Assembly (NCBI RefSeq): GCF_016925535.1
Contig: NZ_CP070496.1
Coordinates: forward strand, 3,694,257 to 3,758,256
Length of the DNA stretch: 64,000 bases
Direction of reading: 5' to 3'
From: Natronoglycomyces albus
GTDB taxonomy: Bacteria; Actinomycetota; Actinomycetes; Mycobacteriales; Micromonosporaceae
A model generated the notes under the pieces. That model saw only the letters and a program-made list of their open reading frames with translations. It was not told the origin of the DNA and ran no database searches. Shown piece by piece: positions 2,996 through 58,140 of the stretch (positions are counted from its first letter, which is position 1; each line of letters starts with the position of its first letter). The position numbers and the translations under genes were made by a program.

Positions 2996-3280
2996 TCAGC
3001 AGAGCACACCAGAAACGATGTCACAGGTAATGTCCCCCAAGCGACCACACGCCGGGGCAATCATGGCTACCGGGATGACGAGCGACTGACCTTGTAGATT
3101 CAGCGCCAGAGCCGAGCCACGTTCGGGATGGGGCGAGACCATATAACGTCCCGACCCGAAGACGAACTCGACTACCTGGCCACCGGTGGCCTTGACCCGA
3201 TCGGAAGCGGTCGAGGACGTCGGCTGCGACACCGTTGAGTGGATGGGATCAGATGCCGTGAGATCGGTCGAATTACTCAT
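2996..3280 (-). CDS. hypothetical small protein (Ser/Thr-rich N-terminus, Cys-containing C-terminus)
   Basis: A 94-aa ORF downstream of 3557..3877 on the same strand. A third ORF 3277..3594 overlaps both. The coding status of all three is uncertain. Confidence 0.2.
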   Translation of the reverse strand: MSNSTDLTASDPIHSTVSQPTSSTASDRVKATGGQVVEFVFGSGRYMVSPHPERGSALALNLQGQSLVIPVAMIAPACGRLGDITCDIVSGVLC

Positions 3281-3556
3281 CGCACACCGCCCGCCAGCAG
3301 GGCTTCTACCCGCATATGCGGGTAGAACAAATCATAAGTTTGCACTTTATGGTGCGTGTTTTTGGGTGCGGGGCAGCGTATGGTGGTTCGTAGCATTACG
3401 AACTCCGTTTCTTGACGCTGAGAGGGTGGTCCGCTAAAGCAAGTTTTAGCGACGAAGTCCTTCGAACCACCCGATTCCATATGAACTTGTGCGCCCACCT
3501 GGACAAGGTGGGCTTTTCTCTGCGCCCTGAACGACCGGCCCGCAAAGCGGGAACCC

Positions 3557-3877
3557 TCAAACAGAAGCACCCCAGGTGATGCCGTAATCCACACCGATCA
3601 CATCGAATATTTCGGAACTATCTATGACTAAATTCCCAAAGTCAACGACCACGGCCATATCGAGCCGGGCGTGCCGCCAAAAATGACTAGAACCACGCCA
3701 GGGCATGAGATAGGCGTCACATTTTGACGGCGCATCCACTCGCCTTCGGGACATGGCACATGCCTTGTAGCACTCAATCCATAGCTCGGCGACATCACCC
3801 TCCCCATCTTGACCAAACCAATGCCAGAGGGTTGCCGCGCTCTCGAAATCGTTCCACTTCGGCGACCATGAGTCCAT
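3557..3877 (-). CDS. hypothetical small Trp-rich protein, first gene divergent from the AT-rich region
   Basis: The ATG is at 3877, directly flanking the AT-rich 3.88-4.2 kb intergenic region. It encodes 106 aa with many Trp/Cys residues. No known family was recognised. Confidence 0.3.
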   Translation of the reverse strand: MDSWSPKWNDFESAATLWHWFGQDGEGDVAELWIECYKACAMSRRRVDAPSKCDAYLMPWRGSSHFWRHARLDMAVVVDFGNLVIDSSEIFDVIGVDYGITWGASV

Positions 3878-4028
3878 AAGGGACGTAGATCGACTCCGCT
3901 AGCTAGCGTTATATCGAGAGTTAAGACGAATATCTACACTATTTCGAGCATGAACCAATTACTTGACGCTTCTAGCATCAATCAAAATCACGCATTAAAT
4001 AAATCGAAGTAATGGTCAACATCACTTC

Positions 4029-4052
4029 CGATCATAGGATCATTGGATGATC
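4029..4052. promoter_or_regulatory. perfect 7-bp inverted repeat CGATCAT-N10-ATGATCG in the AT-rich intergenic region (candidate operator)
   Basis: Read directly: cgatcataggatcattggatgatcg. It contains nested ATCAT repeats and lies about 20 bp upstream of a sigma70-like -35 element. Confidence 0.35.
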
Positions 4053-4070
4053 GTATTAATAAAAAGCAAA

Positions 4071-4099
4071 TTGACGACAATTCAGCTTCGTGTTATCTT
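4071..4099 (+). promoter_or_regulatory. candidate sigma70-like promoter (TTGACG-17 nt-TATCTT) driving the plus-strand gene string
   Basis: TTGACG lies at 4071-4076, followed by a 17-nt spacer and TATCTT at 4094-4099. The surrounding region is locally AT-rich. Confidence 0.35.
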
Positions 4100-4198
4100 C
4101 TGATCGGCAATGTGCGACTCACTGGTAATCACTGTGGATAGACAGTGTCCTGGGTTCTAGTGACGCATAAACCCCCTAGGAATAATAAGGAGAAAATC

Positions 4199-4279
4199 AT
4201 GCAGAACTCCAATGATGTCCTTCGCCAACTCGAGTCCGCTTCCGTGATGCGCGGATGCCAGGACAAGGAAAAGAAGTAA
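4199..4279 (+). CDS. 26-codon mini-ORF (MQNSNDVLRQLESASVMRGCQDKEKK), a candidate precursor or leader peptide
   Basis: The ATG is preceded by AAGGAGA at a 7-nt spacing. It ends with TAA and is followed by a 10-bp-stem hairpin. It is too short to appear in the ORF track. Confidence 0.4.
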   Translation: MQNSNDVLRQLESASVMRGCQDKEKK

Positions 4280-4291
4280 TCCTTTAACACA

Positions 4292-4324
4292 GCGGCGGCA
4301 ACGCTAATCCCGGTTTGCCGCCGC
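4292..4324 (+). terminator. stem-loop GCGGCGGCAA-N13-TTGCCGCCGC between the mini-ORF and the next gene (candidate attenuator or partial terminator)
   Basis: A perfect 10-bp inverted repeat was read directly. No U-tract follows, so read-through into the 4368 gene is likely. Confidence 0.4.
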
Positions 4325-4367
4325 TCCACCCCTCTTATAAGACCGAGCCGACTCGGAGAGCACGAGA

Positions 4368-5483
4368 ATGACCCCCCTGGATAATGTTGCGTTCGACGAA
4401 CATTTGGCTTCTCGACGAATTGCAGCTCGTGATGAATTGCTGCATCTCGCCCAGTCGATGAGTCAGCGCAATTCCCCTCAGCACTGGGATGCAGTGAAAG
4501 ACATTCCTAAGAACGCATTTCTGGAGCCCCGGCTTTTCACGCAATTCTCGCAACCCACGTTCGACCTGACTACGCTGCAACAACTTCTGTTGTCGCAATT
4601 CCAGGAAAGGACCGTACTCATAGCCGTCAAAACCGACTCTCAGGGAGCAATCTCCATTCCTGGCCTCGGTACGTGTGACACGGGCACTCCTGCGACAACT
4701 GGCACAGCCACATACCTCACTAGCGGCAACCAGCTGAGCGTTCAGCTCCACGGACAGGCAGCACAGACCTTCAAGTTGAAAGCGGCGGTCCACGTTCCGG
4801 GGACTGAAATCGAGCTGGTTCGCTACCTCGACCCGGCAGTCTCGGCCTTTTTGCGCAGCCACTCGGTGGACTTCGAGAAGACGCAATTGGTCTTTCCGAC
4901 AGCTGAACATCGGGAACAGATCGCGCGCGCACTCACTCTTATAGAACGCGCCAGCCCCGCATTTCACACCATGCTGCATGAGTCGATTCGCTCTCTCTGC
5001 CTCTACCATCACCCGTCCGACGCATCATTTGCAGCGCTCGGAATACACGGGATGCTCTTCTTCAACGTTCCGACGACGACAACGGTCGGCTACTTCATTG
5101 ACGAATTGGCACATCAGGGCGGCCATGTCCTCTTTAGTGAGGCGACGCTTCACCGCCAAGACTTCTTTACCGTCGACCCCGACACCCCTATGTCCGAAGT
5201 CATCGGGGACGACGATGCCAGATCCGCTTATGACACATTTCATGGACTTTACACCGAATTTACGGTTTCTCAGATACTCAACGCCATATCAAACCTCGGA
5301 GTGGCAAAGGCGGATGAAGCAACCGGTATTCGGCACCATTTCGACATAGTCATGGAACACAGCTCGCGCGATATCGCGCTAGTCGAATCGTGCGCGGAAA
5401 AGCTCTTCACTTCACTGGGGCACCGCGTCTTCGCACAGTTCAAGGACAGCTACGACCGCATTCAATCCCCCGTCACGCAGTAA
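4368..5483 (+). CDS. hypothetical 371-aa protein with His-rich motifs (ELAHQGGH, HTMLHE) and possible metal-dependent enzymatic function
   Basis: The ATG is preceded by GGAGAG. There is no exact match to a family I can name from sequence. It resembles HExxH-type peptide-modifying proteins only loosely. Confidence 0.5.
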   Translation: MTPLDNVAFDEHLASRRIAARDELLHLAQSMSQRNSPQHWDAVKDIPKNAFLEPRLFTQFSQPTFDLTTLQQLLLSQFQERTVLIAVKTDSQGAISIPGLGTCDTGTPATTGTATYLTSGNQLSVQLHGQAAQTFKLKAAVHVPGTEIELVRYLDPAVSAFLRSHSVDFEKTQLVFPTAEHREQIARALTLIERASPAFHTMLHESIRSLCLYHHPSDASFAALGIHGMLFFNVPTTTTVGYFIDELAHQGGHVLFSEATLHRQDFFTVDPDTPMSEVIGDDDARSAYDTFHGLYTEFTVSQILNAISNLGVAKADEATGIRHHFDIVMEHSSRDIALVESCAEKLFTSLGHRVFAQFKDSYDRIQSPVTQ

Positions 5484-5501
5484 CAGATTGAGCCCCATGT
5501 C

Positions 5502-6635
5502 ATGAAAACTACTGTCGAGATCCTCAAAGAAATGGTGGCGATTCCCAGCGTCAACCCCCTGCTCGCGTTGGAGGGTGAACCCGACGAAAGCCACCTGGCC
5601 AACTACATTGTGTCCACTCTGTCCGCTCACGGAATCAAAGTGTGGAAACAGCCGGTGAGCGAAGGCCGAGCGAACGTCATCGCCCACGTGGAGAGAGCAG
5701 GCAACGCCGACGACACGCTCGTCCTGCTCTCGGGACACATAGACACCTACCCCGCTGGCAGCCCCCACGCCGACTTCACCCCCATTGTGGAAGGCACCAC
5801 CGTTTACGGACGAGGAAGCGCCGATGCGAAGGGCCCTCTCGCCGCGATGGTCAGCGCGCTGTTCACCGCTTCGCAAGCTCGGTCGCGGCGTGAGGTGTAC
5901 CTAGCGGCGACCATCGACGAAGAGTGTTTGATGAGTGGCGTCAGCGAACTAGCGGCCCTGGGAATTCGGCCCGACATCGCCATCACGGGCGAGCCGACCA
6001 GCCTTGAGCCGGTCGGCATTCAAAAGGGCATAGTCCGCGGTCACATGCGGCTGTCCCATCCGAGCGCACACGCTGCGTACCCGGCACAGAGCAGCGTGTT
6101 CCTGTCCACAGCCGCCCTAATCGGGGCCGTTGCCGAACTCAACGAGCACCTGGCTTCGCGTACCCGACATCCCCTATTGGGGCCAGCGACCGTCTCCATC
6201 ACGACCTTGTCCGGCAACGGCGGCATGAACCTCGTGGGCGACGAAGTGGTCGTCCAATTCGACGCCCGTTTTCTCCCCGGCTCCACAGGCGAGGAGTTCG
6301 CAGCACATATCGCACAGTTCGTGGCAGAGCGGCTCAACGCAGCGACGACATTCACCATGGACACCCCTTCGTTCATCTCCCCGGCCAACGAGACCGATAA
6401 GGCGAACGCGGCCGTCCACGATTTCTTGGCGACCATCGGCTCAGTGGCCGGGCCCCGCGAGCTAGGGCACTTCTCCTACGGAAGCGAAGCGGGCATCCTC
6501 GCCACGTTCTCCAAGGCCAGCCTCGTTTTCGGGCCAGGGGACGCCAAGTACTCCCATGGCCCCACCGAGTGCATCGACACCAACGAACTCGAAACGGCAG
6601 CCGACATACTTCGTGCTTTCGTGGTGCGGTCATGA
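5502..6635 (+). CDS. M20 family metallopeptidase/deacylase (ArgE/DapE/CPG2-like)
   Basis: The N-terminus MKTTVEILKEMVAIPSVNP and the motifs LSGHIDTYP and GRGSADAKG are hallmarks of the M20 family. Confidence 0.85.
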   Translation: MKTTVEILKEMVAIPSVNPLLALEGEPDESHLANYIVSTLSAHGIKVWKQPVSEGRANVIAHVERAGNADDTLVLLSGHIDTYPAGSPHADFTPIVEGTTVYGRGSADAKGPLAAMVSALFTASQARSRREVYLAATIDEECLMSGVSELAALGIRPDIAITGEPTSLEPVGIQKGIVRGHMRLSHPSAHAAYPAQSSVFLSTAALIGAVAELNEHLASRTRHPLLGPATVSITTLSGNGGMNLVGDEVVVQFDARFLPGSTGEEFAAHIAQFVAERLNAATTFTMDTPSFISPANETDKANAAVHDFLATIGSVAGPRELGHFSYGSEAGILATFSKASLVFGPGDAKYSHGPTECIDTNELETAADILRAFVVRS

Positions 6636-6739: not shown

Positions 6740-7489
6740 ATGTCTGTGCACACCGAACGATCGTCATCACCGAGCCGTGACAAGCTCTGCCTCGCCCTCG
6801 ACCTCACCGACCGGGCGGCCCTGCTCGACATCGTGGACGAACTGAAGGACCTCGTCGGCTGGTTCAAGATCAACTCGGCGTTCACTCTGTTCGGTCCCGA
6901 GTTGGTGCGCGAGCTCCTGGCTCGCGACGTCCGAGTGTTCCTGGATCTGAAACTGCACGACATCCCCAACACCCTCGCCGGCTATGGCACGGCCGTCACC
7001 GAACTGGGCGCCCATCTGGTCACTGTCCACACTTCCGGTGGTGTCGACATGATGCGTTCCCTCGTCACCTCCGCCGACGAGGCGGCGGCCCAGCTGAACA
7101 AACCCCGGCCCACCTTCGTCGGGGTGACAATCCTGACCAGCACCGATCAAACCGGGTTGAACCAAGAGCTGAACGTGCCGGGCACCGTCGAAGAGGAAGT
7201 CGCCCGCCGGGCTGGGCTCGCGAAGGAAGCGGGCCTTGACGGAATCGTGTGCGCTCCGGTCGAGCTGGCCACGGCACGGAAGGTCCTTCCCGACGCCGCC
7301 TTCCTGGTGACACCTGGCACCCGCTCACCTGGGGTCAGCGGCAACGACCACCGACGCGTCGGCACGCACGCCAATGCCATCGCCGACGGCTCCTCGCTGC
7401 TGGTGATCGGCCGTCAAGTACTGCACTCGGAGGACCGCCGGACCACCGTGGCGCAGATCGTGGAAGAGATCGAGGAGGCCCGAGCGTGA
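6740..7489 (+). CDS. pyrF: orotidine-5'-phosphate decarboxylase, type 1 (Bacillus/E. coli-like)
   Basis: FLDLKLHDIPNT, VTPGTRSP and LVIGRQV match the type-1 OMPDC signature. The gene is 249 aa. It sits in a non-pyrimidine-operon context. Confidence 0.85.
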   Translation: MSVHTERSSSPSRDKLCLALDLTDRAALLDIVDELKDLVGWFKINSAFTLFGPELVRELLARDVRVFLDLKLHDIPNTLAGYGTAVTELGAHLVTVHTSGGVDMMRSLVTSADEAAAQLNKPRPTFVGVTILTSTDQTGLNQELNVPGTVEEEVARRAGLAKEAGLDGIVCAPVELATARKVLPDAAFLVTPGTRSPGVSGNDHRRVGTHANAIADGSSLLVIGRQVLHSEDRRTTVAQIVEEIEEARA

Positions 7490-8283
7490 GAGCCCTGCCG
7501 CCGAAATCAGTGATCGCTTGCGTCCATCTGCTGCCCACTCCGGGCTCCCCCCGTTTCGACGGCAATGTCGAACGCATCTACGCGACCGCTCTAGCCGAGA
7601 CCGATGTGTTCCTACGCCACGGCGTCGACGCCCTGATCGTGGAGAACTTCCGGGACCAGCCGTTCCTACCCAACAGCGTCGGGCCCGAAACCACCGCGAC
7701 CATCGCGGGCGTGGCGCGGGAGGTAGTGCGAGCATCCTCGGTGCCCGTTGGCGTTGCGGTGCTGCGCAACGACGCCGCGGCCGCCATGTCGATCGCGGTG
7801 GCCACTGGCGCGCAATTCATCCGCGTGAACGTGCACACCGGAGCCGTGCTCACTGAACAAGGCATTCTCACCGGGCAAGGTCACGACACCCTACGGCGGC
7901 GCGAACAGTTGAAGGGCACGGTCGACATCTGGGCTGACGCCCGGGTGAAGCACTCCGTGCCGTTCACTCATCACGACCTGGCCGCCGAGATCCGGGACTT
8001 GAACAAAAGCGCCGACGGCATCATCGTCTCCGGCGAACTGACCGGGGTAGAGGCCCTGCCTCAAGACCTGAAGGTCGCTCAAGAGAACAGCTCCGCCCCC
8101 GTATATGTCGGTAGCGGAGTCACGGCGGTGAACCTGGCCCAACAATTCGACTCTGCCGACGGATTCATTGTCGGCAGCGACTTCAAGGAAGACGGTGTCG
8201 CCGCCCGGCCCGTCGAGGAGGGCCGCGTCAAGACCTTCATGAACGAGGTTCGCAGACTCCGTGAAGCGTCTACACCGGCATGA
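7486..8283 (+). CDS. BtpA/SgcQ family TIM-barrel protein
   Basis: A GTG start overlaps the pyrF stop (GTGA). The sequence IACVHLLPTPGSPRFDG…IVENFRDQPF…GFIVGSDFKEDG is typical of the BtpA family. The track ORF 7249..8283 was trimmed to the overlap start. Confidence 0.8.
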   Translation: MRALPPKSVIACVHLLPTPGSPRFDGNVERIYATALAETDVFLRHGVDALIVENFRDQPFLPNSVGPETTATIAGVAREVVRASSVPVGVAVLRNDAAAAMSIAVATGAQFIRVNVHTGAVLTEQGILTGQGHDTLRRREQLKGTVDIWADARVKHSVPFTHHDLAAEIRDLNKSADGIIVSGELTGVEALPQDLKVAQENSSAPVYVGSGVTAVNLAQQFDSADGFIVGSDFKEDGVAARPVEEGRVKTFMNEVRRLREASTPA

Positions 8284-8333: not shown

Positions 8334-9044
8334 ATGGACAGTAGCAACGAAACGCGGGTCGACATCGAATCCTTTCGGAAGCTCTTCGGCGAGCCCCGGC
8401 CGACGCAGGGACGGCTGATCTCGATCGTCGGGTTCGACGGGTCGGGAAAGACCACCCAGATAGAGCAAACTGCGTCGGCGCTGCGTCGGCAGGGCCACGA
8501 AGTAGTCGAGACGAAGCAGCCCACCGACTGGTACCGGCAGCTGTCGAAAGTCCAGTCCTTCCACGCCGAGGGCGGCTCCGTCGAAACCGCTCACATCCTC
8601 GCCTTGCTCGCTGCCGCCGACCGTCGGCAACATGTGCGTGAGGTCATCGAACCCGCGCTGGAACGCGGCGCGATCGTCCTGTGCGACCGATACGTGTACG
8701 CGACGTTCGGGGTGTTCATTCACCGAGGCGTCGACTCGGAATTCCTCGCGACCATCAACAGTGGGATTCCACGCCCCGACTACGCCTTCTACCTGGACAT
8801 GTCCAGTGCGGACCTTGTGCGAAGGCTGAAAGAACGGGACGGCGAGAACCTTCAACATGAAGAAAAGTCGGTCGACCGCATCGAATCCATCACGCGCACA
8901 TACAAAGAGCTGGCCTCAGAACTGATCAGTATCGACGGGTCCGCCCCACCCACAGATGTCACGGCCGCGATTCTGAGCCACCTCCAGATCGGCCCCCCGA
9001 CTACCGAGAACTCCACCGACCACGGGCTCTCGGCCAACGCTTAG
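8334..9044 (+). CDS. thymidylate-kinase-like P-loop kinase (dTMP kinase family)
   Basis: It has P-loop GFDGSGKTTQ, LLAAADRRQH and VLCDRYVYATFG, which correspond to the Tmk lid and DRY region. The gene is 236 aa. Confidence 0.75.
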   Translation: MDSSNETRVDIESFRKLFGEPRPTQGRLISIVGFDGSGKTTQIEQTASALRRQGHEVVETKQPTDWYRQLSKVQSFHAEGGSVETAHILALLAAADRRQHVREVIEPALERGAIVLCDRYVYATFGVFIHRGVDSEFLATINSGIPRPDYAFYLDMSSADLVRRLKERDGENLQHEEKSVDRIESITRTYKELASELISIDGSAPPTDVTAAILSHLQIGPPTTENSTDHGLSANA

Positions 9045-9277
9045 GAATTCACTCGCTGAATCCCTAAGCCCGCAGATGGAAAGCGCGTCCGCGGGCATCG
9101 AAAGAACCACGACAAGAAAGGTGATAACCATGCCAGGCAAAGGCCCTTCGATCACTCCGTCCATCGCAGGCATCTTCAAGCCGCGCCCCTAACAGGGCAC
9201 CTGGTCGCCGCCAAATCTGACAAGGGCACCGGACGTTGAGCGTCAGTGCCCGGCGGCACGAGGACAAACCCCTGCGC

Positions 9278-9311
9278 TTGGAGTGGGAAGAACGCTCTTT
9301 CCACTCCAAGC
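9278..9311 (+). other. near-perfect 15-bp-stem hairpin CTTGGAGTGGGAAGA-acgc-TCTTTCCACTCCAAG in the intergenic region
   Basis: Read directly. There is one G-U position. It lies between the Tmk-like gene and the next CDS and has no U-tract. Confidence 0.3.
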
Positions 9312-9443
9312 CACCACCACTACCCCTATACGGCCGCCCGTGCGAAGCCACCCACTTCAGTTGGCCGGACGTGCCGGCTCAGACCTCGCCCGCGAGACCA
9401 CCAGGGCTGGCAACCGCACAGGTGGGACACCTTTGAGGAACAC

Positions 9444-10259
9444 ATGACCGACGACTCCGCTCCATCAGCAGACATCGCCCACATGGACCTACCATCGTGG
9501 GTTCGCGAGAGCTACTCCAACGACGACGTCTACCTCTTCGACGAAGCCCCCTCCGTCATCTCCGTGTACGAAGACCCGTTCCTGCTGGAGAAGTTCACTT
9601 TCCTCGTCCACGTCCCCGCCGAAATCCTCCACAGCCAGGAACGACTGCGACGATTCCTCGGACGGGCCCGCGCGCACTTCGGAAGCGAGTTGCCGTTCCT
9701 GCTGCGCCTAGAGGCGGACCACAAAGCCCCGGCCGGTGACGGCGTCCGCTGTAACGAACGTTTCGTCGAAATGCCGACGGTATCCGTACGCGCCTCTGTC
9801 GACGGGCTACCCGCAGACGTTCACGTCGAACAACTCCACGCCGACAACACCAAGGACTTCGTCAACCTGCTGTTGCACGGGCTGGAGTTCTCCGCCTCGT
9901 CCAAAGGCGTCCCGTTTCGCACCGACGCGGTGGAAGCGAATCTGCGCAGCAACGTGATTCCCGCCTACGAGGCAGACCAGGCGCACGCGCTGCTCGCCAA
10001 GCGCGGCCACGAGGTCATCGGGTTCGTCTCCTGGGTCGACACCGGCGAGACCGTAGAACTGATCGACATCTGGGCGTATGAGCGCGACGAACTACGACGA
10101 CTCGTCTCCCCCCTGCTATACCTCGCCGTCGCCCACTCCGCGGCTGCGACCGTGCGGGGTTCGATAGTCGGCTCGGATGACAATGCGACCGCCGTCTTCC
10201 AACGGCTCCTCGCCCAAGGCTGGAGGCTACACGAATCGTATTGGCGGCTCGAACTATGA
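9444..10259 (+). CDS. hypothetical protein, possibly a GNAT-fold acyltransferase
   Basis: The start was set at MTDDSAPS (GAGGAA RBS). The C-terminus …VIGFVSW…RGSIVGSDDNATAVFQRLLAQGWRL loosely resembles GNAT motifs A/B. The assignment is weak. Confidence 0.45.
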   Translation: MTDDSAPSADIAHMDLPSWVRESYSNDDVYLFDEAPSVISVYEDPFLLEKFTFLVHVPAEILHSQERLRRFLGRARAHFGSELPFLLRLEADHKAPAGDGVRCNERFVEMPTVSVRASVDGLPADVHVEQLHADNTKDFVNLLLHGLEFSASSKGVPFRTDAVEANLRSNVIPAYEADQAHALLAKRGHEVIGFVSWVDTGETVELIDIWAYERDELRRLVSPLLYLAVAHSAAATVRGSIVGSDDNATAVFQRLLAQGWRLHESYWRLEL

Positions 10260-11410
10260 CCGAGAAGTCCACAGCCGCGTCCGGCGACGTGGGTGAACTG
10301 ATCGACGCCGTTCACCGCTGGTACGGAGAAGAACGTCACATCGCGCCGTTCCTGCGAAAGCTACGCAAACGCAGCCCCAAGGTCGTACCAACGTACTTGT
10401 CATGTCTGGAACTACAAGGCGAAACACTGGACAGCCTCACGAGGGCCGAAGTCGACGTGGTGCGGCAACGAGCCGACCACTATGCCGTGATCTGGGAGCA
10501 GCTGCGCCAACGATGGCCCGACATCATCGCCGTCAAAGGGCCGACCGCCAGCGCCGCCTACCCCGCCGGAGTGCAGCGCTACAGCGCAGACCTCGACGTG
10601 GTCGTTTCAGACCAGTTGACCGTCACCGACGTGGCCCGATACTTCCTTGACGCCGGGTGGCAACGCGAAAGCCTCATGTTGTGGCGTTCCGACGGCTGCG
10701 AACAGATGCGGGTCATTGTCGAAAAACCGTTCGTGGAGCCGATGCAGCAGCCCCTAAGAGTCGAGATCACCACATTGGAGTGGATCGGCGCAAGCTCGGC
10801 GACAAAACCTCAGACACGACTCGACGTGAAATCCGACATCGTGCGTACCCAGCTGGCCATCATCGCCGAACGGTATGAGCGAGCCTTCGACTTTCGGGAT
10901 GCGCTGGATTTCCTGTTGCTAGACCGACAACTGTCCGACGCCGGTCGCGCCGAACGGGAGGCGATGATCGCCGACCTTGGCGTCGAACCTCTCGCCGAGG
11001 AGCTGATTCGCCTGGTGTCCCAGATTGACAAGAGCTACGCTGACGCTTCGGCACGGCGGCAACTGGCCGGATTTGGGACACGGTTGTCCGCCAAACTCTC
11101 GTTCTGGCGCAAGGGTCTGCGAAACCCACGGGCCCGACTGGCCTTGGCCTCCCAGTTCGCGCTGATCGAAAACCAGTCGTCCCAGGCTTGGAATCGGGTA
11201 CTACAGGCAATGGTACGAGGCATATCCGGAGCCGATGCCCTGGACAAAGGGCTGCTGGTATGGGGCATCCCGGTCGTGCTGACCGCCGACAAACAAGACG
11301 TGGATTCACCACACATTCGGCATAGTCCTCTCGGGGCATGGTTTCTCACCGCCAGCTCGGTGATCGAAGCGAAGACGTTGGAAGAAGTCGGCGTCGAGAG
11401 CTTGGGCTAG
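10256..11410 (+). CDS. hypothetical protein, possibly an uncharacterised nucleotidyltransferase-like protein
   Basis: Its ATG overlaps the upstream stop (ATGA). The segment VKGPTASAAYPAGVQRYSADLDVVVSD resembles the GS…D.D motif of pol-beta-type NTases. The assignment is weak. Confidence 0.45.
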   Translation: MTEKSTAASGDVGELIDAVHRWYGEERHIAPFLRKLRKRSPKVVPTYLSCLELQGETLDSLTRAEVDVVRQRADHYAVIWEQLRQRWPDIIAVKGPTASAAYPAGVQRYSADLDVVVSDQLTVTDVARYFLDAGWQRESLMLWRSDGCEQMRVIVEKPFVEPMQQPLRVEITTLEWIGASSATKPQTRLDVKSDIVRTQLAIIAERYERAFDFRDALDFLLLDRQLSDAGRAEREAMIADLGVEPLAEELIRLVSQIDKSYADASARRQLAGFGTRLSAKLSFWRKGLRNPRARLALASQFALIENQSSQAWNRVLQAMVRGISGADALDKGLLVWGIPVVLTADKQDVDSPHIRHSPLGAWFLTASSVIEAKTLEEVGVESLG

Positions 11411-11506: not shown

Positions 11507-12475
11507 ATGAGCGACGCGACGGAACTTGCGATACGGGTAACCGACTTGACTCGCACATACCAAAGCCAGGATGGGGCGCCCGAACGAACAGCACTCGACC
11601 AGATCAGCATGGCCGTGCCCCACGGCGAAGTCCACGGGCTCCTCGGCCCCAACGGGGCCGGAAAGACGACACTGTGCAAGATCCTGTCCACGCTGCTAGT
11701 GCCGACATCAGGCAGCGCTACCGTCAGCGGGTTCGACGTGACACACGAGTACAAGCGAATACAGCCTCTGGTGGGAATCGTCTTTGGAGGCGAAAAGGGC
11801 CTCTACAACATGATGACTGCGGCCGACAACCTGCACTTCTGGGCCGGTCTGTACAACGTGAAGCGCTCCGTGGCCAAAGAACGCGTGCCGAGGCTGCTGG
11901 ACTTGGTCGGCCTCAGGGGCCGGGCGCATGACCGCGTCGACACGCTGTCGCGAGGAATGAGACAAAGGCTGCACCTGGCACGCGGCCTCATAGGTGATCC
12001 GCGCATCCTGATTCTGGACGAGCCGACCGTGGGAATGGACCCGATTGCGGCGCAGGAGTTCCGCAACCTGATTCGAGACTTGCGCGAAGATAACATCACT
12101 TTCCTGCTCACCACCCACAACATGGCCGAGGCCGAATCGCTGTGTGACCGTGTCTCGTTCATCGACAGCGGAAAGCTGTTGCACTGCGAAAGCCCCCACG
12201 CGTTGCGGCGGTCGATGTCGAGTCGGCACCGCATCGTCGCCAAGAGCGTGCCCGGTGACATCGCCGCGCAATTGGAACAACGGGTCGACGTCGAGCAAGT
12301 GCGCCTCACCGACTCAAGCGAAGCGCACATCGATCTCACCGACAAGCGGGCCGCCCAAGAAGTGTTGTTCTTTCTCACCGACATAGGCATAGACGAAGTT
12401 TCGCTTGCCCCGGCGACGCTGGAGGAAGTGTACATACAGCTCATCGGCGAACGCGGTATGGAGTTGGGATCGTGA
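11507..12475 (+). CDS. ABC transporter ATP-binding protein (ABC-2/DrrA-like exporter subunit)
   Basis: It has Walker A GPNGAGKTT, signature LSRGMRQRL and Walker B ILILDEPT. Confidence 0.9.
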   Translation: MSDATELAIRVTDLTRTYQSQDGAPERTALDQISMAVPHGEVHGLLGPNGAGKTTLCKILSTLLVPTSGSATVSGFDVTHEYKRIQPLVGIVFGGEKGLYNMMTAADNLHFWAGLYNVKRSVAKERVPRLLDLVGLRGRAHDRVDTLSRGMRQRLHLARGLIGDPRILILDEPTVGMDPIAAQEFRNLIRDLREDNITFLLTTHNMAEAESLCDRVSFIDSGKLLHCESPHALRRSMSSRHRIVAKSVPGDIAAQLEQRVDVEQVRLTDSSEAHIDLTDKRAAQEVLFFLTDIGIDEVSLAPATLEEVYIQLIGERGMELGS

Positions 12476-13251
12476 CACTGTCGGCCCGGCCAATCACCGA
12501 GGCGATGAGGTTCCAGTCTCGGATCATCCGCGGTAACCCCGGAACCTTGCTGCCGCTCATCACCACCCCGTTTCTCACCGCGACACTGCTGGCGATCTTC
12601 GACCACATCGGCCGCGAGGACATTGCGGCCTATGCCGTCATCGCTCCGGCGATCATGGCGTTGCTGGGCGTCGCCATCGGCGAATCCGGCGAAATTATCT
12701 TCCGCGACCGCAACACCGGCGTCCTCGAAGCCCAAATGGGAGCGCCCAGCTCGTTCGCGTCGGTCTTGGCGGGCAGAATCGGCACCGTCTTGGCGTTCGG
12801 GCTCATCGGGCTCGTGCAGGCATGGCTGGTCGCGGCTCTCGGCTTCGGCGTCATCGTCGCCGTCGAGCACCTGGTTCCCTTCGTGCTGGCAACAGTACTG
12901 TGTCTGGTGGGCATGGTGGCCATGGCGATATTGATGGCGGCGACCTTTGTGGTCGGACGTTCGGTGCGAGCCTTCCAAAACGCCATCTCCTACCCACTGT
13001 TCCTCTTCGGTGGTGTCCTCGTGCCGCTGGAACTGCTTCCAACCGTGGTGGAGTGGATCGGCCGCCTGTTCTTCCTGTCCTGGGTGACCGACCTGCTGCG
13101 CGACAGTGTGCTCGCGGCACCCGTCGAGAACCTTTGGCCCCGGCTCGGCATCGCCACGCTGTTGGTGGGTCTCACGCTGGCAGCCGCCATCGCCGTTCTC
13201 TCACGGCTGGTTCAACGCCTCCGTACAACCGGGAATGTGAGTCTCGTATGA
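12472..13251 (+). CDS. ABC-2 type transporter permease
   Basis: It has six hydrophobic helices. Its start overlaps the ATPase stop (translational coupling). Confidence 0.75.
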   Translation: MTLSARPITEAMRFQSRIIRGNPGTLLPLITTPFLTATLLAIFDHIGREDIAAYAVIAPAIMALLGVAIGESGEIIFRDRNTGVLEAQMGAPSSFASVLAGRIGTVLAFGLIGLVQAWLVAALGFGVIVAVEHLVPFVLATVLCLVGMVAMAILMAATFVVGRSVRAFQNAISYPLFLFGGVLVPLELLPTVVEWIGRLFFLSWVTDLLRDSVLAAPVENLWPRLGIATLLVGLTLAAAIAVLSRLVQRLRTTGNVSLV

Positions 13252-14039
13252 GTGTTGTGACGCAATCGCGGCAAGCTATCAATCTGGGCATGGCCTCCAT
13301 GCGCATGACCTACACCGTGAAGTCATTCTTCGGTGGATACATGTTGCGAACACTGTGCCAGGTGGTGTTCTTTTCCTCGATTGGAGCACTGGCCGCAGGC
13401 GGAGAAGTGACTTCGTTTCTTCTAATCGGCATGTCCGTGTATCTGGCAACGACTCTGCCGATGATGGCCAGCGCCTCTACGACATGGGATCGGAACGCGG
13501 GGACTTTGTCGCTGTTGGTGGCGTCCCCGGCGGCACTGGCGGTCGTGTTCCTCTTTCGAAGTTGGTTTTTCATCCTGACCGGTTCGGTGTCGTCTATTTT
13601 GGCTTTGGCGATTCTGATTCCGGCTTTCGGCATCAGCGTCAGTATCTCGCAGGCGGCCTTGATATTCGCGCTGGTCATCGTAGCGGCACTCACCACTTAT
13701 GCTCTGGGTGTCGCCTGCGGCGGCATGGCATTGCGGTTTCCCCATCTACGCAACGTCTTTTCCACGTTCGTCATGACGGTGTCCATGATGATCGGCGGGT
13801 TCGTCGTGCCGCTTGACTACTGGCCGGCGGGCTTCCAGTGGGTAGCGCAGATATTCCCAGGCGTGCACGCCTTGAGTGGGATTCGGGAAGTCATGGGAGG
13901 CGGAGACTTGACGGTGGTGGGCTTTCACACGGTTACAGCCTTCGCTGTGGCTTTCCTGTGGTTGGTTGTCGCGGCATTGTCATTTTGGTGGCTACGAGTT
14001 CACGGTCGCAAGGTCGGCAGCATCGATTTCGAGGATTAA
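13248..14039 (+). CDS. ABC-2 type transporter permease (second membrane subunit)
   Basis: The ATG at 13248 overlaps the upstream stop. It is a polytopic membrane protein. The track ORF 12822..14039 was trimmed. Confidence 0.7.
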   Translation: MSVVTQSRQAINLGMASMRMTYTVKSFFGGYMLRTLCQVVFFSSIGALAAGGEVTSFLLIGMSVYLATTLPMMASASTTWDRNAGTLSLLVASPAALAVVFLFRSWFFILTGSVSSILALAILIPAFGISVSISQAALIFALVIVAALTTYALGVACGGMALRFPHLRNVFSTFVMTVSMMIGGFVVPLDYWPAGFQWVAQIFPGVHALSGIREVMGGGDLTVVGFHTVTAFAVAFLWLVVAALSFWWLRVHGRKVGSIDFED

Positions 14040-14140: not shown

Positions 14141-16831
14141 CTAACTGGCGTTGTCGATGTCGGCGCTCCTGGCGTTGGGGCCGGTTGCCCCGGCGCTGTC
14201 CACGCCAGTGCCGTTGCCGTTGCCAGTGTCCGTCGCCTGGGGCCTTCCCTTGGAGACGGCCAGCGTGTCGCCGCGTTCGGCGACTCCCACCGAGACGGTG
14301 TCACCATCGGTGATGTCGCCGGCCAACAACTGCCGAGCCAGCTGGTCACCGATCGAGTTCTGCACCAGCCGACGCAACGGCCGCGCCCCATAGACGGGGT
14401 CAAAGCCGCGCTCGGCCAACCAAGTGCGGGCGTCATCGTCCACATCGAGGACCAGACGACGGTTAGCCAGCCGTGTGCCCAAGACGTCCAGCTGCACGTC
14501 CACAATGCCCTTCAAGTTCTCTTCGCTCAGCGAGGAGAACACGACAATGTCGTCCAAGCGGTTCAAGAATTCCGGCTTGAAATGCCCCTGCACCGCCGAC
14601 ATGACGGCACTTTGTCGCTGCTCGGCATCCAGCGTCGAATCCGCGATCGAGGTCGAACCCAGGTTCGAGGTCATGATGAGGATCGTGTTGCGGAAGTCGA
14701 CGGTGCGGCCCTGCCCGTCGGTGAGGCGGCCGTCGTCAAGCACCTGCAACAGCGTGTCGAACACGCCCGAATGAGCTTTCTCGACCTCGTCGAACAACAC
14801 CACCGAATACGGGCGGCGGCGCACCGCCTCGGTGAGCTGACCGCCGGACTCATAGCCGACGTAGCCAGGCGGCGCACCGATGAGCCGCGCCACGGAATGG
14901 CGCTCGGTGTATTCGCCCATGTCGATGCGCACCATCGCGTGCGCGTCATCGAACAGGAACTCCGCCAAAGCCTTGGCCAGCTCAGTCTTACCAACCCCGG
15001 TGGGGCCGCAGAAGAGGAAGGAGCCAGTGGGCCGGTTCGGGTCGTTAATGCCTGCCCGGGCGCGGCGCACCGCGTCGGAGACCGCGTGCACGGCGGGATC
15101 TTGGCCGATGACGCGTTGACTGAGCACTTCGTCCATGCGCAGCAGCTTCGCGGTCTCGGACTCGATGAGTCGCCCGGCGGGGATGCCCGTCCAGGCGGAG
15201 ATGACCTCGGCGATCTCGTCTGGTTCGATCTCCTCCTTGAGCATGGGTGAGGCGCTTTGCTCCTTCGAGAGGGCGGCTTCGGCCTGCTGTAGTTGGGACT
15301 CCAGCTCAGGGATCTTGCCGTAGCGCAACTGGGCGACCTCTTCGAGGTTGTATTCGCGTTCGGCGCGTTCGGCGGCGGCGCGGACGTCCTCAAGTTGTTC
15401 CTTCAGTTGCGAGACCGAACCGATGCGGTCTTTCTCTTGGCTCCACTGTTGCGACAGGGCCGAGAGCCGTTCGCGGCTGTCAGCCAGTTCCCGGCGCAAG
15501 GTGGCGAGGCGTTCCCGCGAACCTGGGTCGGTTTCTTTGGCTAGCGCCATTTCTTCGATTTCGAGGCGGCGCACAGTGCGTTCGACGGCATCGATTTCCT
15601 CTGGCCGCGAGTCGATCTCGATGCGGAGGCGCGAAGCGGCCTCGTCAATGAGGTCAATGGCTTTATCGGGTAGGAAGCGGTCGGTGATGTACCGGTCGGA
15701 TAGTTGGGCGGCCGCCACCAGGGCCGAGTCGGTGATGCGCACCCCGTGATGGACTTCGTAGCGTTCTTTAAGCCCGCGCAGGATGGCCACGGTGTCCTCA
15801 ACGGAAGGCTCACCGACCAGGACGGGCTGGAAGCGGCGTTCCAGGGCCGGGTCCTTTTCGATGTTTTGGCGGTATTCGTCAAGGGTGGTGGCACCGACCA
15901 TGTGTAGTTCGCCCCGGGCGAGCATGGGTTTGAGCATGTTGCCCGCGTCCATGGAGCCTTCGGTCTTACCCGCGCCGACCATGGTGTGCAGCTCGTCGAG
16001 GAAGGTGATGATCTGCCCGTCGGCGGATTTGATCTCTTCGAGGACGGACTTGAGTCGTTCCTCGAATTGGCCTCGGTACTGGGCTCCGGCCAGCATGCTG
16101 GCCAGGTCGAGGGAGACCACGGAGCGGTCGCGTAGGGAATCGGGGACGTCTCCGGCGACGATGCGTTGAGCCAAGCCTTCGACAATCGCGGTCTTACCGA
16201 CGCCCGGTTCTCCGATGAGCACCGGGTTGTTCTTGGTGCGGCGAGAAAGCACTTGGATGACGCGGCGAATCTCCGTGTCACGGCCAATGACCGGGTCGAC
16301 TTTGTCGTTGCGAGCGGCTTTGGTCAAGTCGATGGAGTATTTTTCTAGTGCCTTATAGCTGCCTTCGGGGTCGGCGCTGGTGACTTTGCGGTCACCGCCG
16401 CGAATGGTGGGGAAGGCGGCAACGAGCTTTTCGACGGTCGCGCCGAGTTGTTGCATGGCTTCGCCGACGTCGCCGATCTGAGCCAGCCCGGCGAGCAGGT
16501 GCTCAGTGGAGACATATTCGTCTCCGTTGTCGCTAGCGACGCCGTCGGCGGCGTTGATCGCGGCGAGGGATTCGCGGGCCATGGATGGTTCGGCTACGGA
16601 AGACCCTGACGCGGCTGGAAGTTGGTCGAGGTTTTGCTCGGCTTGAGTTGCCAGGGAGCCTGGGGTCACGCCGACTACCTGGAGTAGGCCCGGCGCGGTG
16701 GACCCGTCCACGGTAAGGAGAGCGTGGAGAAGATGCCAGGGCTCGACGGTGGCGTGGCCGCTGCTTTGGGCCTCGCGGGCTGCCTGCGAGATCACTTCAC
16801 GGCTCTTGGTAGTTAGGCGGTTGACGTCCAA
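14141..16831 (-). CDS. clpB: ATP-dependent chaperone ClpB
   Basis: It has an N-terminal Clp domain, two AAA modules ([16 protein letters not shown]) and a long middle coiled-coil. The gene is 896 aa. Confidence 0.95.
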
Positions 16832-55711: not shown

Positions 55712-56305
55712 CTACGGTTTTTCTCCGCACATTAGTTGCACCAAAACTGGCATCGCGCTTGAAGGATCGGGCCCAACCCTGCCCGAGCTTAGCTCTGGGT
55801 CCGCGGCCCGGGCTCTGCGAACAGCCTCGAACACCTGGTCGATTGGGAACTGGTTTGAGAGGCGTTTTTCACTTAGTAGCTTGTGATCGGCTACAAGGTC
55901 ATCTAGCTGCTTCGTAGTCCTCACCGAGGTCGAGTTGGATGCGTGCCACAGTAGCCAGACTTCAAACTTCAAACGGGAGACAATGAGGTCGATTCCCTCT
56001 CGTTGCGCCGTCTTTATTGCTTCCTGAAGCGTCGTGTGTTGGTCGACGTCCACAAGACAGACGCAATGATCGAACGCTTTATCTTTATCCTTGGCGTTCT
56101 TTCTGAATTCGATGCACTTCTTTACGACTTCCCGAGGGTCTTTTCCTACTCCGACAGACTTGACTGAAACCCGAAACCTGCTAGCACGTAGGTATTGTTC
56201 CAGTCGTTCCACGTATTGCTTCTCGGTCACGACGCATTCTGTGACCACCAACAGGCGTCGATATTCCTTGCGAGATTTTCTGGATTTACGTTGAGATTTA
56301 TGCAA
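55712..56305 (-). CDS. RloB-like (AbiLii-type, TOPRIM-like) protein
   Basis: RRLLVVTECVVTEKQYVERL is the RloB hallmark (ILIVCEGEKTE). It also has CLVDVDQH and IDLIVSRLKFEVWLLWH. The gene has a TTG start. Confidence 0.75.
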   Translation of the reverse strand: MHKSQRKSRKSRKEYRRLLVVTECVVTEKQYVERLEQYLRASRFRVSVKSVGVGKDPREVVKKCIEFRKNAKDKDKAFDHCVCLVDVDQHTTLQEAIKTAQREGIDLIVSRLKFEVWLLWHASNSTSVRTTKQLDDLVADHKLLSEKRLSNQFPIDQVFEAVRRARAADPELSSGRVGPDPSSAMPVLVQLMCGEKP

Positions 56306-56388
56306 AAGGGCAGATTCAAGGCCGCAGGAGGCGAAGTTTACGCAGGTAAACGAGCCGACGAGAACGAAGAAGGTGCCTTTTGCATAAA
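56297..56388. repeat. 92-bp element with perfect 13-bp terminal inverted repeats (TTTATGCAAAAGG…CCTTTTGCATAAA) spanning the ATPase/RloB gene junction
   Basis: Read directly. It contributes the last 18 codons and stop of the ATPase and the first codons of the RloB gene. A diverged second copy is at 58141-58244. Confidence 0.4.
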
Positions 56389-57756
56389 CCTCGTTGCTGT
56401 TTTGCCACTGCGGGGGGCCTTCTTCTCGATCAGCGGAGCCAGTGATCCGGGGGCGAGTCGAGGGGTGCCGCCGTAACGTCCAAGGAGGTATCGTTTGGCG
56501 ACGTTGGCGTCTCGATGTCGAGGGAAATCTGCCAGGCAGGATAGCTCCGTGGCCCCGTCATATGACTTGTCGGTAAACCACACCTGCTCTGGTTCGAGGT
56601 CGGTGTCGCTGAGCGGAGACAGGATGTAGGCATCATGGCTCGTGAACAATAGCTGTGCCCGCTTTGGATTCAAGTCAGGGTCTTCGAAAACGCTCAGGAG
56701 CACGTCGAGAAGATGCGGGTGGAGACTGGAGTCAATCTCATCCACGCAGTACAGACCTCCCTTGCGAAGGACCTCAAGCGCGGGAACCATGACCGCGAGC
56801 CAGGCAATCGTCCCGTTGCTCTCATCGTGGAATGAGAATGCCGGACGATCTTCACCGACCCCACGGTGGGTGAAGAGCAGATTCCTTATGACCATGTCGG
56901 ATACTTTGTCGCCCAGCTCGAAACGAGGAGTCGCCGCGTCTTCCTCCTCTGCTCCTTCCTCGGAGGCAACCTCTATATCATCTTGGAATTTTCCAATAAA
57001 CACCCTAAGCGCTTCCCGAACATTCTCTGGAAGTTCTTCTTCTTGTACAGATACTTTCTCGACTCCGATATCGGCAACCTGAAGCAGGGTCTCGATGTCC
57101 TCAAAGGTGATGGTGCCATCTACCAAGGAATCGGCGATCGATCTAAGACGGTGTTCGCGATGGGTGTCCTTCACTGAAACCAAATCAAATGATTCCACTA
57201 GATTGTTCGCGATCGGTGCTAGCTGCGGGTGTTCCAAAAGCAGCGCTCGGCTCATCACCAACTCACGGCGAGTGACCTTCCCGACTGAGCGAAACTTGGG
57301 GTGCAGGTACAGAGTGCCTTTGTCGGACTCTCTTTCAAACACAGTTCGCCATCGTGTATTCGGGACATCCCGCAGCCACTCACGTGCTATACCATTGGCG
57401 TCCACTTCAAATCCATATAGGTGGCGCTTTCCGTCATAGACAAAATCCAGCTCGAAGGTGCTCGTCTCAACCGCTGGGGAATTGTCGAGGGCAAACGGTT
57501 CCCACCGCATTGACTTTGCAGCCTGCCAGGTCGTTGACGAATTGAGGATCGCGGAGAACGTGTAGCCAAGGGCGTCCAGAAGCGCGGATTTACCAGTCGC
57601 GTTCCCACCGAAGATTCCGGCTAGTGGGTAGACGTAGCTCTCCCACTCCTGGCCCTCTTTCGGTTTAAGGGTGCGAAGCGCTGGTCGGATGAAGTCCAGA
57701 GTGAGCTCGTCACGGATGCTCTTGTGGTTCCTCACCGTGAAGCTGAGCAAGATCAT
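56338..57756 (-). CDS. AAA_21-type ATPase (AbiLi/RloA-like abortive-infection ATPase)
   Basis: It has an N-terminal SMC-like P-loop GGNATGKSALLDALG and a C-terminal LLFTSHD. It is paired head-to-tail with the RloB-like gene. Confidence 0.8.
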   Translation of the reverse strand: MILLSFTVRNHKSIRDELTLDFIRPALRTLKPKEGQEWESYVYPLAGIFGGNATGKSALLDALGYTFSAILNSSTTWQAAKSMRWEPFALDNSPAVETSTFELDFVYDGKRHLYGFEVDANGIAREWLRDVPNTRWRTVFERESDKGTLYLHPKFRSVGKVTRRELVMSRALLLEHPQLAPIANNLVESFDLVSVKDTHREHRLRSIADSLVDGTITFEDIETLLQVADIGVEKVSVQEEELPENVREALRVFIGKFQDDIEVASEEGAEEEDAATPRFELGDKVSDMVIRNLLFTHRGVGEDRPAFSFHDESNGTIAWLAVMVPALEVLRKGGLYCVDEIDSSLHPHLLDVLLSVFEDPDLNPKRAQLLFTSHDAYILSPLSDTDLEPEQVWFTDKSYDGATELSCLADFPRHRDANVAKRYLLGRYGGTPRLAPGSLAPLIEKKAPRSGKTATRFMQKAPSSFSSARLPA

Positions 57757-57913
57757 AGGACGACAATATCAGTTAAAGACGTCAATTTCATCGTTTTTCG
57801 CGTGAGAAAGGGCTCAAAGGTAGGTAACTTAATCACAACTGGACAAGTGACCAGGTAGGTTGCATGATGAGGTGTGTCAAGAACTCGCAGGGCAGAATTT
57901 CACTGAGGAGGCC

Positions 57914-57970
57914 ACGAGCGTCCGCCTGAAAAGCGGAAGGTCGCCGGTTCGATCCCGGCCCTGGCCACCA
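57914..57970 (+). repeat. 57-nt 3' fragment of tRNA-Phe (direct repeat, att-like right boundary)
   Basis: ACGAGCGTCCGCCTGAAAAGCGGAAGGTCGCCGGTTCGATCCCGGCCCTGGCCACCA is identical to 55443-55499. The 5' half is absent. Downstream flank similarity continues with mismatches. Confidence 0.7.
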
Positions 57971-58140
57971 GGAATGCGGCCCGCTTACCAGCTAAACGTT
58001 TGGTCGGCGGGTTTTCTTATGCGGACTGACCGATGGTGCCATGCCCGGCTCGCACCAGTCAGCTACCAGTGCATACGACCCAAGGCGGGCAAATCCTGTT
58101 TGCGGCAAAAGCCGCCAAGCCCCTGACCCAGTTGGTGACT

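Follow-up and report, generated by a model that had tools for sequence, protein, structure and literature searches.

We analysed a 64,000-nucleotide stretch of the Natronoglycomyces albus genome (contig NZ_CP070496.1, positions 3,694,257 to 3,758,256; hereafter the window), in which an open reading frame (ORF) of 26 codons plus TAA lies on the plus strand (4199..4279, ATG at 4199, TAA at 4277-4279; translation MQNSNDVLRQLESASVMRGCQDKEKK) and is followed by a GC-rich hairpin. Comparison of sequence, homology and selection makes it highly probable that this mini-ORF is the gene of a precursor or substrate peptide, furnished with a hairpin as terminator or stabiliser, in an undescribed pathway of the RiPP type (ribosomally synthesised peptides with post-translational modifications). 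A sequence-only reading of the window had named the 26-codon ORF, its Shine-Dalgarno sequence AAGGAGA and a hairpin with a 10-bp stem and no U-tract, all of which we confirmed in the sequence, and had put forward a precursor of the RiPP type whose hairpin governs the ratio of precursor to enzyme transcripts; this proposal, putative in its effect on transcripts, is now supported by the conservation of the peptide, its linkage to an enzyme and the fold of that enzyme, relatives in a RiPP export setting and the recurrence of the hairpin. The Shine-Dalgarno sequence (4187..4193) is separated from the ATG by a 5-nt spacer, and GGAGG-like motifs occur at the same place before the peptide gene in most of the homologous loci. 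A promoter-like site found by consensus scan on the plus strand (TTGACG-17-TATCTT with a TG extension, 4071..4099), about 100 nt upstream of the mini-ORF, is a candidate promoter of the peptide operon.

Positions 3900-4400 are overlapped by nine ORFs with a length of 20 aa or more, and the mini-ORF alone is within chance expectation; the hairpin is only moderately unusual, as 156 of 1694 60-nt windows of the same GC-rich 17 kb are equally stable. The significance of both must rest on comparison between loci. We scanned a profile of the 371-aa protein encoded downstream of the hairpin, which carries an HQxxH motif, against one genome per species, which gave 18 loci, and metagenomes gave 18 more. 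The actinobacterial comparison set comprises 13 loci besides the window, from Streptomyces, Nonomuraea, Nocardia, Dactylosporangium and metagenome-assembled genomes (MAGs), and the peptides of L001-3, L008, L014 and L020 were located by six-frame motif and hidden Markov model (HMM) searches.

The mini-ORF recurs in homologous loci: it is kept in all 13 other actinobacterial loci, where a short peptide ORF of 21-26 aa with the consensus M.SADVL.QLSTGAVKRGCQ adjoins the gene of the 371-aa homologue. Short peptides are also carried by the metagenome loci L019 and L020-22, in L020 (unassigned metagenome lineage) as MNDLIAQLKRGSVMQGCQGGDDCTDPKSE ahead of a rearranged cluster, and by a low-GC gammaproteobacterial MAG (L014/L024) as MKINKDLLKRLKKGGVLNGCQDQCD; the whole set of actinobacterial, metagenome and gammaproteobacterial short peptides spans 21-29 aa. 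An HMM built from 11 homologous peptides of other loci, with the window sequence excluded, was run against the 1888 six-frame segments of the 64-kb window and matched the mini-ORF at E = 4.6e-10, the next best segment having E = 4.4. The peptide of the window consists of a leader-like stretch (N5-D-V-L-R-Q-L11), the invariant G19-C20-Q21 and the tail DKEKK, and D6, Q10, G19, C20 and Q21 are invariant in the alignment, while the tail beyond the Gln varies in length and sequence. The Lys-rich C-terminus to which the sequence-only reading had pointed is thus present in the window peptide but is not a family trait. For the invariant Cys-Gln the low-GC L014 uses the codons TGT CAA, and the 13 actinobacterial loci, like the window, all use TGC CAG.

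In the 17 codons that can be aligned, the mean pairwise differences at codon positions 1/2/3 are 3.58/2.37/6.9, dominated by the third position, and the median ratio of nonsynonymous to synonymous substitution rates (dN/dS) of the peptide gene is 0.27. Both other reading frames are interrupted by stops. As judged from homology and these substitution patterns, the mini-ORF was shown to be a real gene, conserved under purifying selection on its amino-acid sequence and not merely on the act of being translated. The peptide gene is inverted in four Streptomyces loci (L001, L002, L003, L008), where it is divergent from the enzyme gene at a distance of about 460 nt and its sequence is preserved. Nine short actinobacterial peptides, that of the window among them, were looked up in a collection comprising 15 billion predicted proteins; none is present, which means that the gene is unannotated, and Pfam and NCBIfam scans assigned neither the short peptides nor the longer ones described below to a family. 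The comparison thereby exposes a protein-coding gene missed by annotation and ties it to a sizeable uncharacterised enzyme family.

The hairpin (4291..4325, plus strand) begins 12 nt past the stop codon, and folding gives it an 11-bp stem and a 13-nt loop, with the arms GCGGCGGCAA (4292-4301) and TTGCCGCCGC (4315-4324) and A4291-U4325 as the eleventh pair. Its stability of -23.1 kcal/mol corresponds to z = -5.2 against dinucleotide shuffles, of which 0 of 200 were as good, and within a 276-nt context (4100-4375) it forms on its own in both the minimum free energy and the centroid structure, neither of which contains a competing anti-terminator pairing. No U-tract follows: the stem is succeeded by CCACCCCUCUUAUAA, and a consensus terminator scan made no call. 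An Rfam scan of 3600-4700 with E values up to 10 gave sub-threshold matches only (the best reached 22.8 bits, the gathering score being 50). Strong GC-rich hairpins of unrelated sequence start at most about 20 nt past the peptide stop in 12 of the other 13 loci from actinobacteria, L002 having no clear one. When stability was ranked over 60-nt windows within each locus, 0-18 of about 1700 windows were as stable as these 12 hairpins (0/410 in the 4-kb L006). The hairpin is kept whether the peptide gene is co-directional or divergent, as the inverted genes of L001, L003 and L008 retain a strong one, and in L014 a U-tract terminator of the classical kind comes after the peptide gene. The comparison thus showed a post-stop hairpin conserved in position across loci. 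That ORF and hairpin are chance intergenic features, which the nine ORFs within 500 nt and the local commonness of equally stable windows would allow, is practically inconceivable given the HMM match, the conservation of the ORF across phyla and GC contents, the z-score of the hairpin and its equivalents elsewhere; we reject a chance origin because of this conservation.

The distance from the hairpin to the next start codon is 42 nt and contains no promoter-like site by consensus scan, so the downstream genes need read-through transcription. We infer that the hairpin acts as a partial terminator or as a 3' stabiliser of the peptide transcript. In RiPP operons a stem-loop commonly follows the structural gene, as with lantibiotic lanA, and actinobacteria have I-shaped terminators that lack a U-tract; the present locus resembles these arrangements in its strong Shine-Dalgarno sequence, short gene, GC hairpin and enzyme genes without an intervening promoter, as far as the sequence alone tells. 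A different role was also considered in the sequence-only reading, namely a leader peptide for attenuation control of the genes downstream. The ORF would then be a translated leader with a functionless peptide, and the pyrimidine-like genes downstream would be regulated by transcription attenuation at the hairpin, as with the pyrBI leader. The promoterless gap would suit such a leader, as would the position of the ORF and hairpin immediately ahead of a set of genes with pyrF-like and tmk-like paralogues among them, yet this explanation is contradicted on several sides and we hold it to be very improbable. The peptide gene on the opposite strand in the four Streptomyces loci rules out a leader acting in cis, and three of these loci keep the strong hairpin; the purifying selection acts on the amino acids; the same motif adjoins HQxxH genes in loci without any pyrimidine-like gene; and neither an anti-terminator pairing nor a run of regulatory codons was found. 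The locus is thus an example that an ORF plus hairpin ahead of pyr-like genes need not be an attenuator.

The reading as a precursor gene draws its second line of evidence from the neighbouring gene (4368..5483, plus strand, Shine-Dalgarno GGAGAG at 4354-4359), whose 371-aa HQxxH product is, by fold search and profile, a predicted peptide-modifying oxygenase of the alpha-ketoglutarate (alpha-KG)-HExxH fold. Across the loci compared, the peptide gene was shown to be always linked to the gene of this putative enzyme. The protein is 100% identical to an NCBI entry. Neither it nor its family is covered by a Pfam model or, above cut-off, by one of NCBIfam, and a PDB sequence search with the HQxxH profile returned nothing meaningful. 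Its structure was modelled from a 17-sequence alignment with a predicted local distance difference test (pLDDT) score of 91.8 and a predicted template modelling (pTM) score of 0.90. A Foldseek search of the PDB with this model gave two significant matches, both with probability 1.0 (8s5f, 22ob): SjiH at E 2.5e-10 (TM 0.61/0.56) and the HExxH domain of ChlB at E 5.9e-9, the next match having E 0.55. The structure of the ChlB domain has been described as 'a novel alpha-ketoglutarate dependent oxygenase'. In addition, TIGR04267 (aKG-HExxH-type peptide beta-hydroxylase) matched at 16.3 bits (E 0.0075) over profile positions 2-174 of 177. The model thus showed the HQxxH protein to have the predicted fold of the alpha-KG-HExxH peptide oxygenases. 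Invariant residues of the HQxxH protein are H249-Q-G-G-H253, S257, E258, R263, R285, Y288 and H292. A word-based search with the 371-aa protein found 19 homologues, the motif HQxxH is present in 157 of 158 retrieved relatives, and an exhaustive HMMER search put the family at 625 clusters at 50% identity. On the modelled fold, the HQxxH proteins form a sizeable branch that is sister to the alpha-KG-HExxH enzymes and has no name, and they extend these recently discovered peptide oxygenases by a further branch. Characterised enzymes with the alpha-KG-HExxH fold act on RiPP precursors and beta-hydroxylate Asp, His, Asn, Gln and Pro, and PflC and PosC in addition cleave the backbone oxidatively after a Gln run (PMC12636437, PMC13060819). 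As a separate observation, three proteins of about 820 aa (P0075, P0123, P0128) have the HQxxH domain fused to an aldo/keto reductase domain, which hints at another chemistry in some branches of the family.

A third line of evidence comes from more distant HQxxH genes, which in L015, L016, L018, L023, L025-L029 and L032 are preceded by peptides of 47-85 aa. These carry a double-glycine-type leader with Cys-His 4-6 residues later (..LSDDLMAQITGG-x3-5-C-H..), for example ..ELSDDLMAQITGG-VGKAK-CH.., ..LSDDVLDQIKGG-AALKEG-CH.. and ..AALEKITGG-VLSG-CH... An ATP-binding cassette (ABC) exporter with a C39 peptidase and an HlyD protein follow the HQxxH gene in L015-L017, and in L026/L027 a C39-peptidase ABC exporter lies upstream on the opposite strand; such peptidase-containing ABC transporters (PCAT) were found in these loci only. 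The short Cys-Gln peptides align to the long ones over SxDVLxQLxxG-xxxxGC[QH], the window peptide meeting the double-glycine motif as NDVLRQLESAS, and the L014 peptide (..KKGG-VLNG-CQ) bridges the two forms. The residues at the leader end are Ala-Ser in the window, Gly-Ala or Ser-Gly in the other actinobacterial peptides, and Gly-Gly in L014 and all long forms. These relatives support the placing of the peptide and its putative HQxxH partner in a textbook bacteriocin or RiPP export context. No precursor peptide was found in L017; an ORF resembling IS66-family Orf2 (4295-4651 of that locus) lies directly upstream of its HQxxH gene, and the precursor may have been disrupted.

Enzyme and peptide also seem to differ together. 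The motif HQGGHVxF[SN]-E-ATL is present in the enzymes of all 18 Cys-Gln loci, its Glu standing five positions past the second His (E258, 5139-5141), whereas this position is mostly Ala in the Cys-His loci, with L025 as an exception. The pattern suggests that the enzyme contacts the residue after the peptide Cys, a signal that is confounded by phylogeny. It would suit any direct contact and not just that of a substrate, and it is accordingly shared by another explanation, in which the peptide is an accessory subunit, a regulator or a metal-binding partner of the HQxxH protein through its single Cys. The invariance of this Cys and the constant co-occurrence of peptide and enzyme agree with such a partner. 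We nevertheless think it improbable, as the double-glycine leaders and C39-ABC exporters of the long relatives imply a secreted peptide, every enzyme characterised with this fold has a precursor peptide as its substrate, and a strong Shine-Dalgarno sequence with a terminator hairpin suits a stoichiometric substrate better than a subunit.

Downstream of the HQxxH gene, all on the plus strand, the window encodes four further conserved members of the cluster: an ArgE/DapE/LysK-like M20 metallohydrolase that scores below all equivalog cut-offs (5502..6635), a paralogue of the type-1 PyrF-like orotidine-5'-phosphate decarboxylases (6740..7489; NF001273 210.8 bits, cut-off 193), a TIM-barrel protein of the BtpA/SgcQ family (7486..8283) and a dTMP-kinase-like nucleotide kinase (8334..9044; TIGR00041 113 bits). 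The GTG start of the BtpA gene was set from the domain start and the N-termini of homologues, and an alternative start of its ORF at 7249 is probably 79 codons too far upstream. The stop of the PyrF-like gene and this GTG overlap as GTGA (7486-7489), which suggests translational coupling of the two genes. Synteny of these four with the genes for the peptide and the HQxxH protein extends across genera: it holds in the actinobacterial loci with enough flanking sequence, in L019 and in L020-22, in more than one gene order; L005 is without the PyrF-like gene, and L014 keeps the M20 and BtpA genes. Fusions of the HQxxH protein to the dTMP kinase (P0006) and to the M20 protein (P0020) also occur. 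Other actinobacterial loci add a PyrD-like dihydroorotate dehydrogenase, a PyrK-like Fe-S protein, a major facilitator superfamily (MFS) transporter and an IclR regulator (L001 13031-16889; L004 2571-5111), to which the first 16 kb of the window, the part searched, contain no match. A PDB sequence search with the BtpA protein gave no match, and a PADLOC scan of the cluster proteins returned no defence system and generic P-loop matches only. The sole BtpA-family enzyme characterised in a natural-product pathway, SbzO, helps to remove the ADP-ribosyl part of an NAD-derived intermediate in altemicidin biosynthesis (PMC9516700). Taken together, the predicted companion enzymes point to ribose-phosphate or pyrimidine-nucleotide chemistry.

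This company makes it conceivable, though in our estimate rather doubtful, that the peptide serves as a sacrificial scaffold from which a small molecule or cofactor is made. Conversion, with the help of the nucleotide-type enzymes, would then be limited to the invariant Gly-Cys-Gln (or Cys-Gln), which the M20 protein would excise, the rest of the peptide being discarded. The very short precursor of 21-29 aa would agree with this, as would the restriction of invariance to D, Q and G-C-Q, the variable length of the tail, and companions that resemble primary metabolism (PyrF-like, dTMP-kinase-like and BtpA, elsewhere PyrD/PyrK-like). Moreover, the M20 protein is of the ArgE/DapE/LysK deacylase type and not an endoprotease, there is no leader peptidase in the window, and the BtpA-family SbzO acts on a nucleotide-derived small molecule (PMC9516700). 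The distant relatives linked to PCAT and HlyD, however, have long cores that look like exported peptides, and the scaffold is in any case nested within the reading as a RiPP, a sub-case rather than a contradiction of it.

Two window-specific genes, absent from the other loci, come next on the plus strand, one for a 337-aa protein without a family match (9246-10259) and one, of uncertain start, for a weakly NTP_transf_5 nucleotidyltransferase-like protein (10241-11410), and their reading frames overlap at 10241-10259. They are followed on the same strand by a DrrA-like ABC ATPase (11507-12475), also linked in L005, L009, L011, L012 and L013, and two ABC-2 permeases (12472-13251 and ~13300-14039); this DrrA/ABC-2 system (11507..14039) is a candidate exporter or immunity system. 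A ClpB-type chaperone gene on the minus strand (14141-16831) forms the right boundary of the cluster.

For the RiPP-type pathway that we favour, the following course would fit these data. The promoter near 4071-4099 would drive transcription, and the strong Shine-Dalgarno sequence would ensure efficient translation of the peptide, while the GC hairpin would end or stabilise most transcripts and read-through would supply the enzyme mRNA, leaving the precursor in excess over the enzyme. The N-terminal half of the peptide (SxDVLxQL..), the putative counterpart of the LSxxLxxIxGG leader of the long relatives, would dock it on the HQxxH protein, and this protein would carry out an oxidation at the invariant Gly-Cys-Gln. 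As the most economical guess, Gln21 would become beta-hydroxylated, and the variable tail may in addition be removed by oxidation or hydrolysis. Thereafter the M20, BtpA, PyrF-like and dTMP-kinase-like enzymes may trim the peptide, attach or build a phosphoribosyl or pyrimidine-nucleotide-like group, or do both, and the ABC-2 transporter may export the product. The chemistry, the boundary of leader and core and the transcriptional effect of the hairpin are thus put forward as what the gene content would predict. As a bolder and distinctly tentative proposal, the short peptides and the HQxxH enzymes could represent a new RiPP class in which Gly-Cys-Gln is oxidised, after which the BtpA, M20, PyrF-like and dTMP-kinase-like (elsewhere PyrD/PyrK-like) enzymes would either link it to a phosphoribosyl or pyrimidine-nucleotide-like unit or turn it into one. 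If this is true, the pathway would yield a hybrid of ribosomal peptide and nucleotide, or else a small molecule or cofactor derived from the peptide, and the chemistry would be unprecedented.

Several results weigh against the RiPP-type pathway favoured here. The TIGR04267 score of the HQxxH protein falls short of the cut-off of 40 bits, and HQxxH in place of HExxH puts the protein outside the family's sequence definition. Among the post-stop hairpins compared, none is weaker than that of the window. The window ORF goes undetected by an HMM of the long Cys-His peptides, and the short-peptide HMM reaches the L023 and L027 peptides at a non-significant E of 0.14-0.39; as the profile scores are not significant, we infer the homology of short and long peptides from the motif alignment, position, context and the L014 bridge. 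With Ala-Ser at the end of the leader and no C39 peptidase in the window, the removal of the leader is unaccounted for. Furthermore, the PyrF-like and kinase genes are above NCBIfam equivalog cut-offs and could encode ordinary pyrimidine enzymes, for supply or self-resistance, rather than tailoring enzymes.

Among known systems, the closest are the alpha-KG-HExxH RiPP pathways (ChlBH and SjiH triceptides, BpmH biphenomycins, PflC/PosC and the nitrilobacillin Pro hydroxylase; IPR026337/TIGR04267), in which a small precursor gene likewise adjoins a gene for the same zincin-like fold. The HQxxH protein retains both His of H-x-x-x-H, and the known oxygenases hydroxylate His and Gln, exactly the residues that follow the invariant Cys in the present peptides; backbone cleavage after Gln, as by PflC, would account for the variable tail. 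The present cluster differs in having no radical S-adenosylmethionine (SAM), multinuclear non-haem iron oxidative (MNIO) or cyclophane partner, in its M20, BtpA, PyrF-like and dTMP-kinase-like companions and in precursors of just 21-29 aa. It shares with the double-glycine/PCAT bacteriocins and RiPPs the distant family members that combine LSxxLxxIxGG and a core with PCAT and HlyD (L015-L017), whereas the window has Ala-Ser, no C39 domain and an ABC system of the DrrA/ABC-2 type. Small molecules are also made from tiny precursors, as in the RiPP systems PqqA for pyrroloquinoline quinone (PQQ), MftA for mycofactocin, PaaP for pantocin A and TglA for 3-thiaglutamate. These resemble the present case in a precursor of 20-30 aa with few invariant residues, metabolism-like enzymes and a hydrolase for excision, and differ in that the present cluster has no radical SAM PqqE/MftC, ThiF-like PaaA or peptide aminoacyl-tRNA ligase (PEARL) and that its invariant Gly-Cys-Gln is internal, not C-terminal. 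A ribosomal peptide beside nucleotide-handling enzymes is a feature shared with the peptide-nucleotide RiPPs of the microcin C type and with minviopeptin, reportedly an ADP-ribosylated triceptide; Pfam and NCBIfam scans of the cluster, unlike these systems, gave no MccB/ThiF-like adenylyltransferase or ADP-ribosyltransferase, and nucleotide attachment to the present peptide is a purely speculative suggestion. RiPP precursors with a stem-loop and HExxH-fold oxygenases in RiPP clusters are thus known kinds, while the HQxxH branch, the Cys-Gln precursors of 21-29 aa and their fixed association with M20, BtpA, PyrF-like and dTMP-kinase-like genes appear to be undescribed, and our literature searches found no publication describing the cluster. 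The pairing of a ribosomal peptide with pyrimidine-nucleotide-type enzymes is unusual and offers a testable genome-mining lead for new peptide chemistry.

The G+C content is 0.55 at 4001-6000 and 0.54 at 56001-58000, compared with about 0.62 elsewhere in the window, and the first of these dips spans the peptide gene, the AT-rich region upstream of it and the HQxxH gene. The minus strand carries, at 2996-3877 and divergent from the peptide gene, a group of three small ORFs of 94, 105 and 106 aa, with no Pfam match and no counterpart in related loci. Moreover, a second family of mini-ORFs, absent from the window, adjoins the cluster in some Streptomyces-type loci. Its members, of which MRKYVKPASKKVNQGTIVSGNA is an example, are 22 aa long and follow the pattern M[RK]KY.KP...KV..; all have a GGGGG/GGAGG Shine-Dalgarno sequence, and they were located in tandem in L004 (7570-7638, 7679-7747) and L007 (7568-7636, 7680-7748) and at L019 1054-1122 and L002 12391-12459; they could represent a second peptide partner.

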